64,000 nt of DNA, taken from positions 118,641 to 182,640 of the forward strand of contig OZ240239.1 in the NCBI GenBank assembly GCA_965198095.1. The letters run 5' to 3'. Below, one piece after another: positions 10,857 to 43,186 of the stretch. This DNA is from Candidatus Latescibacterota bacterium. GTDB lineage: Bacteria; Latescibacterota; UBA2968; GCA-2709665. A model generated the notes under the pieces. It saw nothing but the letters and a program-made list of their open reading frames with translations, made no database searches and had not been told where the DNA came from. A program made the translations under genes and the position numbers. Position 1 is the first letter of the stretch. Each line of letters begins with the position of its first letter.

Positions 10857-10997
10857 AAATCCCCCCTGCCCCTCCCTCGACTCGCAAGCTCGCTCGGGAC
10901 AGGCCTTTGCTAAAGGGGGGAGACTACTCGTACCGACATACTACCCATCAAGAAACGGAATCCTCCCCCTTTGGAAAAGGGGGACTGAGGGGGATTT
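10857..10997. repeat. 141-nt element bounded by imperfect inverted repeats (AAATCCCCCCTGCCCC ... GGGGACTGAGGGGGATTT), MITE-like
   Basis: Terminal IRs read directly. Internal palindrome CCCCCTTT-GGA-AAAGGGGG (10965-10983). The left half recurs at 19704-19742. Confidence 0.55.
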
Positions 10998-11038: not shown

Positions 11039-13063
11039 TCACACCGCCGTATAAGAAAAATACCGCGCGTCGTTCGCGTCCAGCTCCACCGGAAGACCCT
11101 TCGCCATCAAATCCTTTCCAGAGTACTCGTCCGCCTCGCCCGACTTCTCGTTGGTCACACGATAGGTGCTCCCCGAATCGAGCGACCTCATCCGAATCTC
11201 CAGCCGATCCGTTGTGCCGTAATACCGGAAGACAAGCACGATCCCCTCTTTCGTCCCGTCACGGAACTGTCCGGCGTCCCAATCCGCCTCGTCCTGCGGC
11301 TGCGGCGTCAGGTGATGGTAGTCCTTCATCAGCAGATGCCGAAACCGCTTGTAGACCCCGATCCAGTGCTTCAGGTTCGCCAGCGGCACCGCCTCGATCT
11401 CGTCCATCCTGGCGCTGATGAAGAGCATCCCCGCCATACGGCTGATGCAGGACAGGTCCGAGATCTCCTCGTCCATCCCGATGTGACCCTTCAGCGGCTT
11501 GGGCGCCAGGATCGTCCCGAGGTGACTCGCGGGCAGGAAGGTGTTCCCGCTCAGCTGCATCCGCCGGCAGCGATGAGGATCGCCGCTGAACTCGTTGGCC
11601 CAGCATCCGTGGGACCGCCTCACCACGCCCAGATCGAGTCGGTGCGCCCCGACGGAATTGTTTTGAATGAAGACGTCAGGGTGCCGCTCGAGCAGCCGCT
11701 CCCACACCGAATACAGCCCCTCGTAATACGCGAACTGGATCTTCCCCGTCGGGTCCACGGCCTGCCACGTCGGCAAAGGTCCCTGGTCGCACTCCCAGTG
11801 GATGTATCTCAGCTTCAGTCGCTCGATCACGCCACTGACCAGTTCGAACACATAGTCGCACGCCTCGCGAAGCGCATAGTTCATCAGGCGATATCTGATT
11901 ACCACGAATTTCCAATCGCTCGCACCCTTCGGTGCGTCCGGGAAGAGCAGGTGGGGTTTCTCGTTCCAGATCTTCGTCCCCTCGGAGATCACTTCCAGGT
12001 CGAGGAACAACCCCATACCGATCTCCCTGGAGCGGAGATGTTCCGCCAACGCCTCCATGCCGCGAGGCCACTTCTGCGGGTCTTCAGGCCAGTTCCCAAA
12101 ACCCGTCGCGTGGAGACCCTTGAACCACATGACCACCAAGTCCGCCATCTCTACACCCAGTTCGGCGTTCACATCCGCGTGCAGAAAGAGCTCGTCCTCT
12201 TCAAAGGGCTCCCGGTTTCCCGGCCAGTAGGAATAGGTCACAGGAGGGAGCGCGGCGCCATGGAGCGGAGGGATCAGATGACCCGCGATATACCTTCGCA
12301 GGGCGTTGCTGCCCGCGTCGATGTCGCCCTCGAAGAAGCCGACGTGAACACGCGGAAGCTTCAGGCGCTCGCCCGGCTCCAGGACCAGTCCGTCCACTCC
12401 CGGACCGAGCTTCAGACTCAGGCCAGGTTCAAAGCCCGTGTAAGGCCGTTTCTCATCCGTCCGTTCCTCCGCCTGGACCCGATTCAAGACCTTGAAGTGA
12501 CCGTGCCACAGCCCCGACCACTCGAGGCCGAGAAAGAGTCCGGGTGCGTCCGACCGGGCGCCCGCCGTGGCCAGAAAGATCGGCAGATCCTGGTCCGAGG
12601 AAACGCCGTCTGCCGGCCCGTGGCTGAACTCCGGACCGAACCCCGCCATCGGCATATCCGTGCGCACCCAGTAGACCTCCCTACCCGGATAGCCCAGAAG
12701 CTTCCCGTAGGCACCACCAGAGCTGCTCACGATCTTCGGTATGCCTTCGAACCCGAACAGCGTCATGCTCAGCGCCCACAGGTCTGAAATCGGCTTGGAG
12801 CGCTCCGACGAGGTGTTCGTCAGCGAGAGCTGGTACTCCACCGCACCATAGTCAGGAACAACCTCCACGTGGCAGATCGCATCCAGGCCGGCGTCGCTGC
12901 CGAACCCGAGCTCCCAGCTGTCTTCCGACACCTGCTCGACCCCGTCCTCTGCCCACGTAACAGCGGCATCTTCCATCACGACCGAGAACAGCTCGGTTCG
13001 TTCGATGAACCGGGCCAGTGAAGGCGGGGCCGGCTTCAAGAATGCGTCGAATGTGGCTTGCAT
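11039..13063 (-). CDS. GH36-like (clan GH-D, alpha-galactosidase-like) glycoside hydrolase
   Basis: Start set at MQATFDAF to match the paralog start. Architecture is an N-terminal beta-sandwich followed by a barrel. IHWECDQ sits in the place of the GH36 KWD nucleophile motif, and NSVGAHRLDLG in the place of GGGRxD. Family call is tentative. Confidence 0.75.
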   Translation of the reverse strand: MQATFDAFLKPAPPSLARFIERTELFSVVMEDAAVTWAEDGVEQVSEDSWELGFGSDAGLDAICHVEVVPDYGAVEYQLSLTNTSSERSKPISDLWALSMTLFGFEGIPKIVSSSGGAYGKLLGYPGREVYWVRTDMPMAGFGPEFSHGPADGVSSDQDLPIFLATAGARSDAPGLFLGLEWSGLWHGHFKVLNRVQAEERTDEKRPYTGFEPGLSLKLGPGVDGLVLEPGERLKLPRVHVGFFEGDIDAGSNALRRYIAGHLIPPLHGAALPPVTYSYWPGNREPFEEDELFLHADVNAELGVEMADLVVMWFKGLHATGFGNWPEDPQKWPRGMEALAEHLRSREIGMGLFLDLEVISEGTKIWNEKPHLLFPDAPKGASDWKFVVIRYRLMNYALREACDYVFELVSGVIERLKLRYIHWECDQGPLPTWQAVDPTGKIQFAYYEGLYSVWERLLERHPDVFIQNNSVGAHRLDLGVVRRSHGCWANEFSGDPHRCRRMQLSGNTFLPASHLGTILAPKPLKGHIGMDEEISDLSCISRMAGMLFISARMDEIEAVPLANLKHWIGVYKRFRHLLMKDYHHLTPQPQDEADWDAGQFRDGTKEGIVLVFRYYGTTDRLEIRMRSLDSGSTYRVTNEKSGEADEYSGKDLMAKGLPVELDANDARYFSYTAV

Positions 13064-13116
13064 TTCAGCTCCCGCTTCCTGCAGCAACTACGTCACCATA
13101 CACTTCAGATGCGCAT

Positions 13117-13277
13117 GTCATTCCGAGGAGCCTCTGCAGAGTCAGATCACGCTTTGCCAAAAACTTGGCGTATTTGCGGCGACGAGGAATCTCAAAAGGG
13201 CATTACTCATTGACTATCTCTTGAAGTATCAGCTGCTGCGTAGACTGTTGCGATTCCTGGCTCACGCTCGGAATGAC
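13117..13277 (-). repeat. 161-nt nested inverted-repeat element in the leader of the GH36-like gene
   Basis: Outer arms GTCATTCCGAG (13117-13127) and CTCGGAATGAC (13267-13277) are perfect complements. An inner GAGGAATC / GATTCCTG pair is also present. Homologous to 15379-15541. Confidence 0.7.
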
Positions 13278-13312
13278 AGATTAGGTTGCGAGGTTCCTGT
13301 CGAAAAAGGTGA

Positions 13313-15337
13313 TCACAACTTTTTGTAGGAGAAAAACCTGGCATCATTGGCCTCCAGCTCCGCCGCAAGGCCCTGCGCCATCAAGTCCTTACCCGAACAC
13401 TCCTCCGCTTCGCCCGATTTCTCGTTCGTCACACGATACTGGCTCTTCGGATCGAGCGATCTCATCCTTATCTCCTGCCGTCCTGTCCTGCCGTAAAACC
13501 GGAAGACCAGCACGATTCCCTCCTTCGTCCCGTCACAGAACTGCCCGGCGTCCCAGTCCGCCTCGTCCTGCGGCTGCGGCGTCAGGTGATAGTAGTCCTT
13601 CATCAGCAGATGCCGGGACCGCTTGAAGACCCCGATCCAGTGCTTCAGGTTTGCCAGGGGCGCCGCCTCGATCTCGTCCATCCTGGCGCTTACAAAAAGC
13701 ATCCCCGCCATTCGGCTGATGCAGGACAGATCCGAGATCTCCTCGTCCATCCCGATATGGCCCTTCATCGGCTTGGGCGCCAGGATCGTCCCGAGGTGAC
13801 TCGCGGGCAGGAAGGTGTTCCCGCTCAGCTGCAACCTGCGGCACCGGTGTGGATCGCTCATGAACTCGGTGGCCCATCCGCCGTGGGAACGCTTGATCAC
13901 TCCCAGGTCGAGCCGGTGCGCCCCGACCAGGTTGTTCTGAATGAAGACGTCGGGGTGCCGCTCCAGCAGCCGCTCCCACACCGAGTACAGCCCCTCATAG
14001 AACGCGAACTGGATCTTCCCGGTCGGATCGACGGCCTGCCACGTCGGCAGGGGTGCCTGGTCACACTCCCAGTGGATATACCTCAGCTTCAGGCGCTCGA
14101 TCAGTCCGCTGACCATCTCCAAGACCGTATCGCACGTTTCCGGAAGCGCATAGTTCATCAGGCGGTATCTGAATCCCGCGAACTTGAAGTCGTGCGCCCC
14201 CTTCTTTGGATCCGGGAAGAGCAGGTGCGGTTTTTCGTTCCAGAAATCCGTCCCCTCGGCAACCACCTCCATTTCGATGAACAGCCCCAAACCGATCCCC
14301 TTCGCGCGGGCGTGTTCCGCGAAGGCCTCGATCCCGCTCGGCCACTTCTCCGGATCTTCCGGCCAGTTTCCGTGACTCCTGGGATGGTGACCCCTGACCC
14401 AGGCGACGTCCACGTTTGCCGTCTCGATACCGAGTTCCGCGCTCACGTCCATGTGTTGGCACAACTCATCCTCTGTAAATGGATCCCGGTTCCCCGGCCA
14501 GTAGGAATAGGTCACCTGAGGGAGCGCCATCCCCTCGAGTGGAGGGATCAGATAACCTGAAATGTAGCGGCGAAGGGCGTTGCTGCCGGCGTCGATGTCC
14601 CCCTCGAAGAAGCCGACGTGAACGCGCGGAAGCTTCAGGCGCTCGCCCGGTTCCAGGACCAGTCCATCCACTCCGGGGCCGAGCTTCAGACTGAGGCCGG
14701 GTTCAAAGCGCGTATAACGCCGTTTTTCGTCCGTCCGTTCCTCCGCCTGGCCCAGGTTTAGCGTCTTGAAGTGCGCGTGCCACAGCCCGGACCACTCCAG
14801 GCCCAGAAAGAGTCCCGGTGCGTCCGACTGGGCGCCGGCCGTGGCCAGAAAGATCGGCAGGTCCTGGTCTGAAGACACGCCGTCCGCCGGCCCGTGGCTG
14901 AACTCCGGTCCGAACCCCGACATCGGCATATCCGTCCGCACCCAGTACACCTCCCTACCCGGATAGCCCAGAACCTTCCCGTAGGCACCGCCGGAGCTGC
15001 TCACGATCTTTGGAAGACCTTCGAACCCGGACAGCGTCAGGCTCAGCGCCCACAGGTCCGAAATCGGCTTGCAGCGCTCCGACGAGGTGTTCGTCAGAGT
15101 GACCTGATACTCTACGGCACCATACTCTGCAACAACCTCCACGTGGCAGATCGCATCCAGCCCGGCGTCGCTGCTGAACCCGAGCTCCCAGGTATGCTCC
15201 GATACCTGCTCGACCTGGTCCTCCGTCCACGAAACGGCCGATGCTTCCATCATCACCGAAAACAGCTCCGTTCGCTCGATGAACTCGGCCAGTGAAGGTG
15301 GAGCCGGCTTCAGGAATGCATCGAATGTGGCCTTCAT
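13313..15337 (-). CDS. GH36-like glycoside hydrolase (tandem paralog of 11039-13063)
   Basis: 674 aa, alignable end to end with the neighbouring paralog and highly similar by eye. Same IHWECDQ and LVGAHRLDLG motifs. Confidence 0.8.
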   Translation of the reverse strand: MKATFDAFLKPAPPSLAEFIERTELFSVMMEASAVSWTEDQVEQVSEHTWELGFSSDAGLDAICHVEVVAEYGAVEYQVTLTNTSSERCKPISDLWALSLTLSGFEGLPKIVSSSGGAYGKVLGYPGREVYWVRTDMPMSGFGPEFSHGPADGVSSDQDLPIFLATAGAQSDAPGLFLGLEWSGLWHAHFKTLNLGQAEERTDEKRRYTRFEPGLSLKLGPGVDGLVLEPGERLKLPRVHVGFFEGDIDAGSNALRRYISGYLIPPLEGMALPQVTYSYWPGNRDPFTEDELCQHMDVSAELGIETANVDVAWVRGHHPRSHGNWPEDPEKWPSGIEAFAEHARAKGIGLGLFIEMEVVAEGTDFWNEKPHLLFPDPKKGAHDFKFAGFRYRLMNYALPETCDTVLEMVSGLIERLKLRYIHWECDQAPLPTWQAVDPTGKIQFAFYEGLYSVWERLLERHPDVFIQNNLVGAHRLDLGVIKRSHGGWATEFMSDPHRCRRLQLSGNTFLPASHLGTILAPKPMKGHIGMDEEISDLSCISRMAGMLFVSARMDEIEAAPLANLKHWIGVFKRSRHLLMKDYYHLTPQPQDEADWDAGQFCDGTKEGIVLVFRFYGRTGRQEIRMRSLDPKSQYRVTNEKSGEAEECSGKDLMAQGLAAELEANDARFFSYKKL

Positions 15338-15378
15338 CTCAGCCCCGTTCTACATCACGATACACTTTGCAGGAACCT

Positions 15379-15541
15379 GTCATCCCGAGGAGCCTTTACG
15401 GAGTCAAATCATGCCTTTCTTAAAAACCCTGGCGAATTACGGCGACGAGGAATCTCAGGAAGAAAGTATTCACTTAACAATATCTTGAAGACGTAGCTGC
15501 TCCGTCATGTGTTGAGATTCCTCGCTCGCGCTCGGAATGAC
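15379..15541 (-). repeat. 163-nt nested inverted-repeat element in the leader of the second GH36-like gene
   Basis: Sense strand reads GTCATTCCGAGCGCGAGCGAGGAATCTC ...57 nt... GAGATTCCTCGTCGCC ... GGCTCCTCGGGATGAC. The inner helix is 10 bp and perfect (15447-15456 with 15514-15523). The outer helix has one U-G position. Confidence 0.7.
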
Positions 15542-15595
15542 AAATCGGGTTGTGGACCTTGGTGATACACGCCCATCCGAAAGCCAAATACGTCA

Positions 15596-17517: not shown

Positions 17518-17630
17518 CGGTCTCTCCTTTGCTTTTCGTTTTTCTCAATCTTCTCTGCGACCTCTGCGCCTCGGATCACAATCCTTTGGGGGCAGGCGGT
17601 GATTCTTGGTTCTTGATTTTCCCGATCCCC

Positions 17631-17659
17631 GGTACCCGTGTTTTGCTTTCCCGGTACCC
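17631..17659. repeat. GGTACC-box copy 2 (GGTACCCGTGTTTTGCTTTCCCGGTACCC)
   Basis: Lies 42 nt after the stop at 17702 and 114 nt before the start at 17517. Confidence 0.8.
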
Positions 17660-17701
17660 GGATTTCCATTCCGCAATCCCAAATTCGCAATCCGCAATTG
17701 G

Positions 17702-19530: not shown

Positions 19531-19538
19531 AGCTTACG

Positions 19539-19639
19539 TTCGCCAGCAGGAGCTGGCTCCTACCTTATGAACGGCTTGTGAATATTACCTGATTCCAAAC
19601 GCCGGTAAATCCGGTAGGAGCCGCCTCCCGGCGGCGAAC
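19539..19639. repeat. REPIN (inverted REP doublet), stems GCCAGC/GCTGGC and GCCGCC/GGCGGC
   Basis: TTCGCCAGCAGGAGCTGGCTCCTACC ...46 nt... CCGGTAGGAGCCGCCTCCCGGCGGCGAAC. Same unit as the array at 42353-42967. Confidence 0.85.
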
Positions 19640-19703
19640 ACTTCACCCCGATACTCTCAACCGACGGCCTAGAGCACCCGGATACTTGAGGCTTGGTGCT
19701 GTG

Positions 19704-21615: not shown

Positions 21616-21722
21616 ATATGAATAGACGTCTGAAACGGTTCAACAACGAACCCACGGTACTCCTGTTCTGATTCCCGGGTGCTCGCCTTCACGATCCACG
21701 AACAACGGTTTTTACGATCCCC

Positions 21723-21751
21723 GGTACCCGTGTTTTGCTTTCCCGGTACCC
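21723..21751. repeat. GGTACC-box copy 4
   Basis: GGTACCCGTGTTTTGCTTTCCCGGTACCC, 17 nt after the stop at 21769. Preceded by CACGATCCACGAACAACGGTTTTTACGATCC. Confidence 0.8.
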
Positions 21752-21768
21752 GAACTAAGCCCTGCTTC

Positions 21769-41654: not shown

Positions 41655-41805
41655 CAAGCCCGGCAAATCCGGTAGGAGCCTTACCTTCGCCAGCAGGAGC
41701 TGGCTCCTACCTTATGAACGGCTTGTGAGTATTACCTGATTGCAAGCCCGGTGAATCCGGTAGGAGCCGCCTCCCGGCGGCGATCCATTCACGCCGATAC
41801 TCGCC
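41655..41805. repeat. REPIN unit preceded by a truncated half unit, flanking the RAYT 3' side
   Basis: CAAGCCCGGCAAATCCGGTAGGAGCC is joined directly to TTACCTTCGCCAGCAGGAGCTGGCTCCTACC ... CCGGTAGGAGCCGCCTCCCGGCGGCGA. Relative to array units, 37 nt carrying one hairpin are missing at a GCC microhomology. Confidence 0.85.
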
Positions 41806-42352: not shown

Positions 42353-42967
42353 CTTACCTTCGCCAGCAGGAGCTGGCTCCTACCTGATGAACGGCCTGTG
42401 AGTATTGCCTGATTGCAAGCCCGGTGAATCCGGTAGGAGCCGCCTCCCGGCGGCGAACACTTCACCTCGATCCTCGCCTTACCTTCGCCAGCAGGAGCTG
42501 GCTCCTACCTTTTGAACGGCTTGTGAGTATTGCCTGATTGCAAGCCCGGTAAATCCGGTAAGAGCCGCCTCCCGGCGGCGAACACTTCACCTCGATCCTC
42601 GCCTTACCTTCGCCAGCAGGAGCTGGCTCCTACCTCATGAACGGCTTGTGAGTATTACCTGATTTTTCAAACCCGGTAAATCCGGTAGGAGCCGCCTCCC
42701 GGCGGCGAACACTTCACCTTGATCCTCGCCTTACCTTCGCCAGCAGGAGCTGGCTCCTACCTCATGAACAGCTTGTGAGTATTACCTGATTTCAAACCCG
42801 GTAAATCCGGTAAGAGCCGCCTCCCGGCGGCGAACACTTCACCTCGATCCTCGCCTTACCTTCGCCAGCAGGAGCTGGCTCCTACCTCATGAACAGCTTG
42901 TGAGTATTACCTGATTGCAAGCCCGGTAAATCCGGTAGGAGCCGCCTCCCGGCGGCGAACACTTCAC
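42353..42967. repeat. Tandem array of five REPIN units (period 125-127 nt)
   Basis: Units start at 42353, 42478, 42603, 42730 and 42855. Each unit is TTCGCCAGCAGGAGCTGGCTCCTACC + 47-nt spacer + GGTA(G/A)GAGCCGCCTCCCGGCGGCGAAC + linker. The array starts 29 nt upstream of the RAYT ATG. Confidence 0.95.
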
Positions 42968-43186
42968 TTCGCAGAAAGCAAGTATTGGGTGTGCCGTTTT
43001 GTCGTCAAAAGCCGATCGGAGACTAAGTTGTTGAATTTCACGCACCTGAAGCGAGTCTCGTCGCGGGTGTGGATCGATCTGCAAAAACCGGTCTGGGAAG
43101 ATAGGTAGGTAGGGCTTGAACGCTAAAACGTTCTTGGAGGAAGGAGACAGGATCGGTCGGCTGGCGCGCCCACTCTTGCCTCAAGG

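Follow-up and report, generated by a model that had tools for sequence, protein, structure and literature searches.

The 64,000-nucleotide (nt) stretch of Candidatus Latescibacterota bacterium DNA analysed here, hereafter the window (contig OZ240239.1, positions 118,641 to 182,640), carries two tandem GH36-like genes, each of which is preceded by a non-coding element bounded by inverted repeats. A first-pass annotation had recognised a homologous element upstream of both genes and had offered two readings of it: a leader RNA folded into a conserved nested helix, or a small mobile element co-duplicated with the gene. The two elements are indeed present, at 15379-15541 and 13117-13277, and the comparisons reported below lead us to propose, with good confidence, that they are doublets of hairpin repeats related to the Ssn-related motifs (SRM), passengers that were co-duplicated with the gene.

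Two elements in a tandem of GH36-like genes

The features on which the argument relies are the following (aa, amino acids).

13313-15337, minus strand: GH36-like paralog 1, 674 aa, Pfam Melibiase PF02065
11039-13063, minus strand: GH36-like paralog 2, 674 aa counted from the ATG at 13063
11057-15552, minus strand: tandem duplication, unit a 15552-13332 and unit b 13288-11057
15379-15541, 163 bp: element copy 1, two inverted SRM-like hairpin units and a spacer, in the 258-nt gap between a PhyH-like gene and paralog 1
15379-15454, plus strand: long-loop unit of copy 1, GTC-ATCCC-GAG-(56-nt loop)-CGA-GGAAT-C
15455-15515, no strand: spacer of copy 1, with 57 nt separating B from B'
15516-15541, minus strand: short unit of copy 1, GTC-ATTCC-GA-GC-GCGA-GC-GA-GGAAT-C
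13117-13277, 161 bp: element copy 2, homologous to copy 1, in the 249-nt gap between paralog 1 and paralog 2
13117-13191, plus strand: long-loop unit of copy 2, GTC-ATTCC-GAG-(55-nt loop)-CGA-GGAAT-C
13252-13277, minus strand: short unit of copy 2, GTCATTCCGAGCGTGAGCCAGGAATC

Both paralogs match Pfam Melibiase (PF02065); they share 83% amino-acid identity, and their codon third positions are 73% identical. Each duplication unit consists of about 10-40 nt of upstream sequence followed by the element, the leader and the gene, and units a and b are 83.7% identical across 2241 aligned bases. Since this identity covers the whole 2.2-kb unit, element included, the element was duplicated together with the GH36 gene.

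Each element is made of two inverted copies of a unit of about 26 nt, GTC-ATTCC-GA-G..C-GA-GGAAT-C, placed around a spacer of 57-61 nt, with a loop insertion of roughly 50 nt in one of the two units. All four units of the window read (T)GTC-ATYCC...GGAAT-C, with GTC on the 5' side of the palindrome and C directly 3' of it. The short unit of copy 1 is predicted to fold into a hairpin whose 5-bp and 2-bp stems are separated by a 2x2 G.A internal loop and capped by a tetraloop, which is GNRA-like in the 26-nt minus-strand unit, while the short unit of copy 2 is slightly degenerate, its 3' GA being changed to CA. In the long-loop unit of copy 1, the ATCCC head faces the GGAAT tail with one C.A mismatch on the plus strand; read on the minus strand, this position is a G.U pair. 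Only four sites in the window carry the exact 11-mer heads, and the elements have a G+C content of 48-50%, against 61% for the window.

The arms A-B...B'...A' of the first-pass annotation, whose "sense strand" is the minus strand, that is, the coding strand of the GH36-like genes, correspond to these units: A+B and B'+A' are the two inverted units. Its description of the arms was accurate. Arm A, GTCATTCCGAG, lies at 15541-15531 and 13277-13267; A', CTCGG(G/A)ATGAC, is CTCGGGATGAC in the 15.4-kb copy and CTCGGAATGAC in the 13.1-kb copy, the single difference giving the announced U-G pair, a G.U on the mRNA strand; and B, CGAGGAATCTC, pairs with B', GAGATTCCTCG, over 57 nt, perfectly in the 15.4-kb copy and with two mismatches in the 13.1-kb copy (CCAGGAATCGC). 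The distance to the start codons had been put at 54-55 nt and has to be corrected to 41 nt (ATG at 15337) and 53 nt (ATG at 13063).

The arms and the interior of the element have not diverged to the same extent. Between the two copies, 41 of 44 arm positions are identical (93%) against 81 of 121 interior positions (67%; Fisher p = 5e-4), and the spacer taken on its own is also about 67% identical, which is about the neutral level. Judged by these identities and by the 73% found at codon third positions, the interior has drifted at about the neutral rate, the arms being constrained.

On the minus strand at 10873-10901, about 140 nt 3' of the stop codon of paralog 2, lies a degenerate SRM-like hairpin, TGTCCCGAGCGAGCTTGCGAGTCGAGGGA; its position is close to the distal end of the duplication, and it may be the decayed remnant of a third unit.

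Distribution and structure of the hairpin unit

The unit is present at more than 330 fetched loci (given below with the prefix L) belonging to at least 10 phyla. That the GTCATTCCGAGCG..GAGGAATC core recurs widely, which the first-pass annotation had mentioned, is confirmed by a pattern scan that found the short unit with this core in 92 IMG/VR stretches; the composite pattern gave 0 matches in IMG/VR. In the GTDB species genomes, at least 120 stretches contain a unit followed by a 45-75 nt spacer and an inverted tail, the chance expectation being roughly estimated at about 3 in 596 Gb. Among the matches listed, the hosts of these doublets include Flavobacterium, Hymenobacter, Chryseobacterium, Dehalococcoidia, Anaerolineales, Terriglobia/Acidobacteriota, Gemmatimonadaceae, Armatimonadota, Opitutaceae, Hydrogenedentota and others, often with several doublet loci per genome, and the host phyla seen are mainly Bacteroidota, Chloroflexota, Acidobacteriota, Gemmatimonadota, Armatimonadota and Cyanobacteria. 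The pattern of the long-loop unit was found in at least 120 metagenome stretches, some with genuine long loops and others with short head arrays that also fit. The elements are typically 80-140 bp long (median 110), the copies of the window lying near the long end.

When the whole window element was compared by BLAST with the 330 fetched loci, only the terminal unit of 28-37 nt was matched, so that the interior of the element would be unique to the window locus. No Rfam family was found to cover the elements, either in the whole window at gathering thresholds or in 15 related loci, and lowering the requirement to E<=10 over the element region produced only a chance C/D-box match (E = 0.69). 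A literature search for the arm 11-mer returned unrelated primer sequences only. Spurious peptide motifs of hypothetical-protein annotations, such as ...SFRAKRGI... and ...LGMT..., find their explanation in this repeat. In a Flavobacterium genome, the Flavo-1 RNA (RF01705, 77 bits; L099:607-684) lies about 600 nt from an SRM doublet, which is probably a coincidence.

The pairing that is conserved in this family was examined by comparing the inner three stem positions of each head with those of the first downstream tail at every locus fetched; since the scan patterns admitted only TCC and CCC heads, the other head triplets were scored separately. The head/tail triplets are TCC/GGA in 582 units, TCT/AGA in 70, CCC/GGG in 52, CCT/AGG in 42, GCT/AGC in 23, TTC/GAA in 6 and GCC/GGC in 3. 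For heads other than TCC and CCC, 146 of 201 are fully Watson-Crick paired with their tail, where chance would give 1/64. In a formal covariation count on 70 units of equal length, 94.1% of the cells are paired and 51 double-sided changes are observed against 16.2 in shuffles, a value that 0 of 500 shuffles reach; all the slid controls stay much lower than the observed pairing. Furthermore, in 95 of the 189 paired elements the triplet of the left unit is not that of the right one, TCC being combined with CCC, for instance, or GCT with TCT. In those elements A:A' and B:B' therefore cannot both be perfect, and the local hairpins are.

Because the covariation is internal to the units and the left and right triplets differ, the conserved structure is the hairpin formed within each unit, A with B and B' with A', and not the long-range nested helix, which arises incidentally when two palindromic units are set in inverted orientation. 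The covariation analysis that the first-pass annotation had called for thus lends no support to its A:A' and B:B' pairings. The consensus unit reads GTC - ATNNN - GA - G...C - GA - N'N'N'AT - C, with an invariant GTC 5' of the palindrome, a 5-bp stem whose three inner pairs covary, a tandem G.A internal loop, a variable apical stem-loop and an invariant C on the 3' side.

Nuclease genes flanked by the units, and possible signs of mobility

The Neisseria Transformation Sequence (NTS), CGTCATTCCCGCGMAVGCGGGAATCYRG, is the oriented form of the dRS3 repeat, and its relatives in other bacteria were named SRM (Chenal et al. 2025, Nat Commun 16:2388, PMC11893778). NTS/SRM flank the gene of SsnA, a GIY-YIG protein of 94 aa with a single domain (cd10448); the protein binds the hairpin as single-stranded DNA (ssDNA) only, cuts a few nucleotides upstream, and is inactive on double-stranded DNA, on RNA and on the reverse strand (PMC11893778). 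By mutagenesis, the three nucleotides 5' of the palindrome were found to be the main determinant of cleavage, and the C that follows it to govern binding (PMC11893778). The activity was shown for four Ssn/NTS pairs (N. meningitidis, N. elongata, N. wadsworthii and Wolbachia), the system modulates transformation in N. meningitidis, and the NTS-ssnA-NTS layout was called IS-like (insertion sequence) and likened to REP (repetitive extragenic palindromic) sequences and RAYT (PMC11893778). The units of the window have the oriented GTC head, the hairpin-forming imperfect palindrome and the trailing C of SRM/NTS.

At five places among the fetched loci, the position of the spacer is occupied by an open reading frame (ORF) of about 95 aa. 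In L256, L270, L234 and one of the copies in L289, this ORF is exactly bracketed by outward-facing heads, and the left head is degenerate at the fifth place, the second copy in L289. The bracketed ORFs match the GIY-YIG domain PF01541 with E values of about 1e-14 to 1e-15. The same association emerges when the protein is taken as the starting point: among eight loci picked by their GIY-YIG protein alone, four from IMG/VR and four distinct ones from database homolog look-ups, seven are flanked by such units, which are of the GAG/CGA type of the window in four cases (triplets TGC, GCT or TCT) and almost Neisseria NTS in the other three. The loci where units of the GAG/CGA type flank GIY-YIG genes are L256, L270, L289, L234, L338, L341, L342/L343 and L344. 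Altogether, 43 ORFs are bracketed by outward-facing heads; within the tight brackets (350-600 nt) there is either a GIY-YIG gene or a pseudo-ORF derived from the repeat, and inspection of the 43 ORFs by eye, without a Pfam scan, revealed no Y1 or DDE transposase.

The invariant Y5, Y15 and E62 of the alignment of these GIY-YIG proteins lie no more than 1-2 residues away from the catalytic Y6, Y17 and E64 of SsnA (PMC11893778). The proteins are 49-58% identical to homologs flanked by NTS-like units (L335-L337), and these homologs lie on predicted viral IMG/VR contigs, with units near-identical to the Neisseria NTS (e.g. CCGTCATTCCCGCGGAAGCGGGAACCC). An NCBIfam search with the GIY-YIG proteins returned no named Ssn family, and a sequence search of the PDB gave only the UPF0213 structures 1zg2 and 1ywl, weakly.

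The elements are mostly intergenic: 62% of them overlap long open stretches by less than 10%, compared with 8% of random positions. Their presence also varies between close relatives, as three pairs of sequences that are 89-99% identical (L025/L042, L045/L078 and L337/L336) differ in unit-bearing segments; L337, for instance, carries an additional doublet of 89 bp that L336, 89% identical to it, does not have. The direct repeats that flank these filled and empty sites are imperfect and of varied length, about 3-16 nt, and no consistent target-site duplication (TSD) of fixed length was seen at the three pairs. These differences are consistent with gain or loss by a nuclease or by recombination, transposition not being proven. 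Partial arrays of heads and tails often stand beside full units (L259, L256, L227, L341, L342 and others), for example GTCATTCCGAGGAGCG plus 10-15 nt repeated 2-3 times before a unit, or CTCAGAATGAC plus 14 nt repeated five times after one. Such arrays of unit fragments may have been left by cutting and repair that recurred at the boundary of the unit.

Could the GAG/CGA units form, in Bacteroidota, Chloroflexota, Acidobacteriota, Cyanobacteria and other groups, a large, undescribed branch of the Ssn-related repeats, whose ORF-less doublets, those of the window included, are non-autonomous and moved in trans by the GIY-YIG nucleases of about 95 aa? We regard this as a tentative and rather doubtful proposal. 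If it were true, it would define a transposon-like system with a minimal GIY-YIG nuclease as its only enzyme, the arrays and the filled and empty sites being its footprints.

The window contains other repeats. A second dispersed family has a 125-nt repeat that includes the inverted repeat GGCTCCTACC...GGTAGGAGCC; it forms a tandem array of 4.9 copies, 95% identical, at 42353-42971, with a further copy at 41680-41804, some 550 nt ahead of the array, and an isolated one at 19533-19656, at a distance of 23 kb. The segment 33404-34242 is made of nested tandem repeats whose periods are 54, 179 and 233 nt; they are about 75% similar to the 125-nt repeat and have the GGCTCCTACCGGATT motif in common with it. 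An exact 38-nt repeat, CGGGTACCGGGAAAGCAAAACACGGGTACCGGGGATCG, with GGGTACCGGG as an internal direct repeat, occurs on the minus strand at 17623-17660 and 21715-21752, in two intergenic gaps of the same-strand glycoside-hydrolase cluster.

Interpretation, alternatives and comparison with known systems

The model that we propose considers each copy as a non-coding DNA module in which two inverted Ssn-related hairpin motifs surround a spacer. The window elements would be ORF-less derivatives of the unit-nuclease cassette, comparable to the dRS3-RS-dRS3 elements of Neisseria or to a MITE (miniature inverted-repeat transposable element). One copy would have been located upstream of the ancestral GH36 gene and carried along in a tandem duplication of about 2.26 kb. 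The relevant structure would be a local hairpin in ssDNA, during replication, transformation or repair, rather than an mRNA leader. Lying within a cluster of genes on one strand, the elements are likely to be transcribed; if they influenced GH36 expression, they would do so incidentally, and at this locus they would most likely be passengers.

Several observations weigh against this model. No Ssn or GIY-YIG gene was found within the 64-kb window; with two element copies, that is, four units per 64 kb, the genome is not visibly rich in units. The published SRM pattern, HGTCWYN(0-2)YYVSBRHN(0-5)WNVSBRGN(0-2)RNCYNB, matches nowhere in the window, and the inner stem is GAG...CGA instead of the CGCG..GCGG of NTS, giving a tandem G.A loop and a variable apical stem-loop. 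The link of the GIY-YIG proteins to Ssn is a probable one, drawn from size, domain, the 49-58% identity and the catalytic positions. When folded as ssDNA, the short units form the predicted hairpin, but the long-loop units are not stable alone. Finally, RNA folding of both leaders, as suggested in the first-pass annotation, does return the nested structure as the minimum-free-energy fold of each (copy 1, -58.4 kcal/mol, z = -2.7; copy 2, -55.4 kcal/mol, z = -2.2), and the sole arm substitution, which keeps a G.U pair on the mRNA strand, is a C.A mismatch on the opposite strand.

The last two points are those expected of a cis-regulatory leader or intercistronic RNA, possibly an exapted repeat, whose nested A:A' and B:B' helix would control the translation, stability or processing of the paralogs' mRNAs. 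The position of the elements, on the sense strand in the intergenic gaps of a same-strand cluster and close to the ATGs, suits this view, as does the higher conservation of the arms between the copies. The two copies, however, stem from a single duplication and so provide no independent covariation, whereas the covariation of the family designates the local hairpins, half of the paired elements being without perfect A:A' and B:B' together. The arms proved to be a generic repeat, present at hundreds of unrelated loci beside unrelated genes; no Rfam family matches, a scan found no sigma-70-like promoter or intrinsic terminator near the elements, and the repeat relatives that were studied experimentally act as ssDNA, not as RNA (PMC11893778).

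The relatives of the GH36 genes point in the same direction. Both elements are present in L213, a near-identical strain (97.6% identity). The syntenic locus L214, at about 80-90% DNA identity, has both paralogs, and there the ATG of paralog 2 begins one base past the TGA of paralog 1, without the element; at this junction (L214:1-470) the whole 249-nt gap is absent, element included, which makes it uninformative on TSD or excision. L214 is a long-read contig of 3x coverage in which sequencing errors are possible, and a split aldo-keto reductase gene is seen on the same contig. No unit was found upstream of the distant GH36 homolog P0005 (37% identical; L346 and L347). Among the relatives compared, the element stands upstream of GH36 only in the near-identical strains L213 and L345, and since L214 and P0005 are without it, it is not a conserved feature of the GH36 gene family. 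The nearest named SHMT homologs belong to Candidatus Poribacteria MAGs, at 62-66% identity, which links the window to that group only tentatively.

The locus L345 (JGI Ga0496847_1536450; GH36 97% identical) was considered as a single-copy "empty" state and set aside as evidence, because it is a hybrid of the paralogs. Its 5' 1.6 kb is identical to paralog 1, its 3' 450 nt and the downstream flank to paralog 2, and the switch occurs near nt 2180, inside a stretch where the paralogs are 91-96% identical; it is either a real recombination deletion between the paralogs or a short-read assembly chimera. A leader RNA tied to GH36 is thus not supported and we consider it unlikely, and the reading as a promiscuous inverted-repeat element was essentially right.

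A REP or REPIN element moved by a RAYT of the IS200/IS605-like Y1 type, or a MITE with terminal inverted repeats (TIRs) moved by a DDE transposase, would account for the REPIN-like architecture of an inverted hairpin doublet and for copies that are dispersed, intergenic and polymorphic in their presence. We find this improbable. The head is GTCAT, and not one of the GTAG or CGTC tags reported for the REP super-families (PMC3733652); the tight brackets that hold a real ORF all hold a GIY-YIG gene; and neither a Y1- or DDE-like transposase (the ORFs being judged by eye, as noted above) nor a consistent TSD was seen. For the mobile, co-duplicated element of the first-pass annotation, the co-duplication at 83.7% identity, the dispersal, the mostly intergenic position and the presence/absence differences all stand; the term "plain MITE" is inexact, because the associated gene encodes a small GIY-YIG nuclease rather than a classical transposase and no clear TSD is seen. 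As for chance inverted repeats or a functionless duplicated spacer, with arm conservation as a sampling effect, the shared ancestry of the copies through the gene duplication would fit, but the database scans refute it and leave it a negligible probability, the 26-nt unit and its paired architecture recurring at hundreds of unrelated loci, far above chance, and the arms being significantly better conserved than the interior.

Viewed as Ssn-related doublets, the elements remove a candidate riboswitch or leader RNA from the GH36 locus, and the apparent conservation of the leaders becomes the result of co-duplication combined with constraint on a generic repeat. On a wider scale, the published pattern misses a widespread variant of the Ssn-related repeats described in 2025, distinguished by its tandem G.A loop and variable apical arm. 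In several phyla, genes for small GIY-YIG nucleases are bracketed by this variant, which also occurs as ORF-less doublets of 80-200 bp whose presence differs between near-identical sequences. It adds circumstantial support to the view, already published, that NTS-ssnA-NTS units are mobile elements or were so in the past.

Among known systems, riboswitches and structured leaders resemble the window elements by their location upstream of an ORF and by a stable predicted fold; they differ from these elements, which have generic arms and show neither association with a gene family, nor long-range covariation, nor an Rfam family. MITEs such as the Correia elements are likewise small (100-170 bp), ORF-less, bounded by inverted repeats, intergenic, polymorphic in presence and possibly co-transcribed with neighbouring genes, whereas here no fixed-length TSD is seen, the "TIRs" are self-complementary hairpins and the product of the counterparts that carry an ORF is a nuclease of about 95 aa instead of a transposase. 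REP, BIME and REPIN-RAYT systems also combine hairpin units with an oriented head, frequent inverted doublets, an enzyme gene flanked by repeats and a presumed recognition as ssDNA hairpins, yet their enzyme is an HUH/Y1 transposase and not a GIY-YIG nuclease, and their head sequence is another. REPs are usually lineage-specific, whereas the sequence of the unit described here is conserved across phyla.

The NIMEs (dRS3-RS-dRS3; Bentley et al. 2007, PMC1797815) come closer, with two short palindromic repeats around a non-conserved spacer of 50-150 bp, an intergenic position beside genes, arrays that are dynamic between strains (PMC1797815) and a spacer G+C below that of the genome, which recalls the low G+C of the elements relative to the window. 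NIMEs are defined in Neisseria, have the dRS3 core ATTCCC-N8-GGGAAT and often form long arrays (PMC1797815), whereas the window has one isolated doublet per gene, in a distant phylum and with a variant unit.

With the SRM/NTS themselves, besides the inner stem and the lack of a cognate nuclease in the window, the differences concern the 50-nt insertion of the long-loop unit, which exceeds the 20-50 nt given for SRMs, the host phyla listed above, and the published SRM pattern, which matches canonical NTS and the L336 and L337 units and misses the consensus GAG/CGA units. It is because of this miss that we file the window elements as a variant and not as certified members. The resemblance comprises an imperfect palindrome of about 26 nt with an oriented, non-palindromic GTC head and a C after the palindrome; the outer GTCATTCC...GGAATC, shared with NTS and including the positions critical for cleavage and binding; a multi-copy, mostly intergenic distribution across phyla; and units on both sides of single-domain GIY-YIG genes of about 94 aa, in an IS-like layout. 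From this resemblance in sequence and arrangement, the window elements are probably a variant of the SRM/NTS kind.

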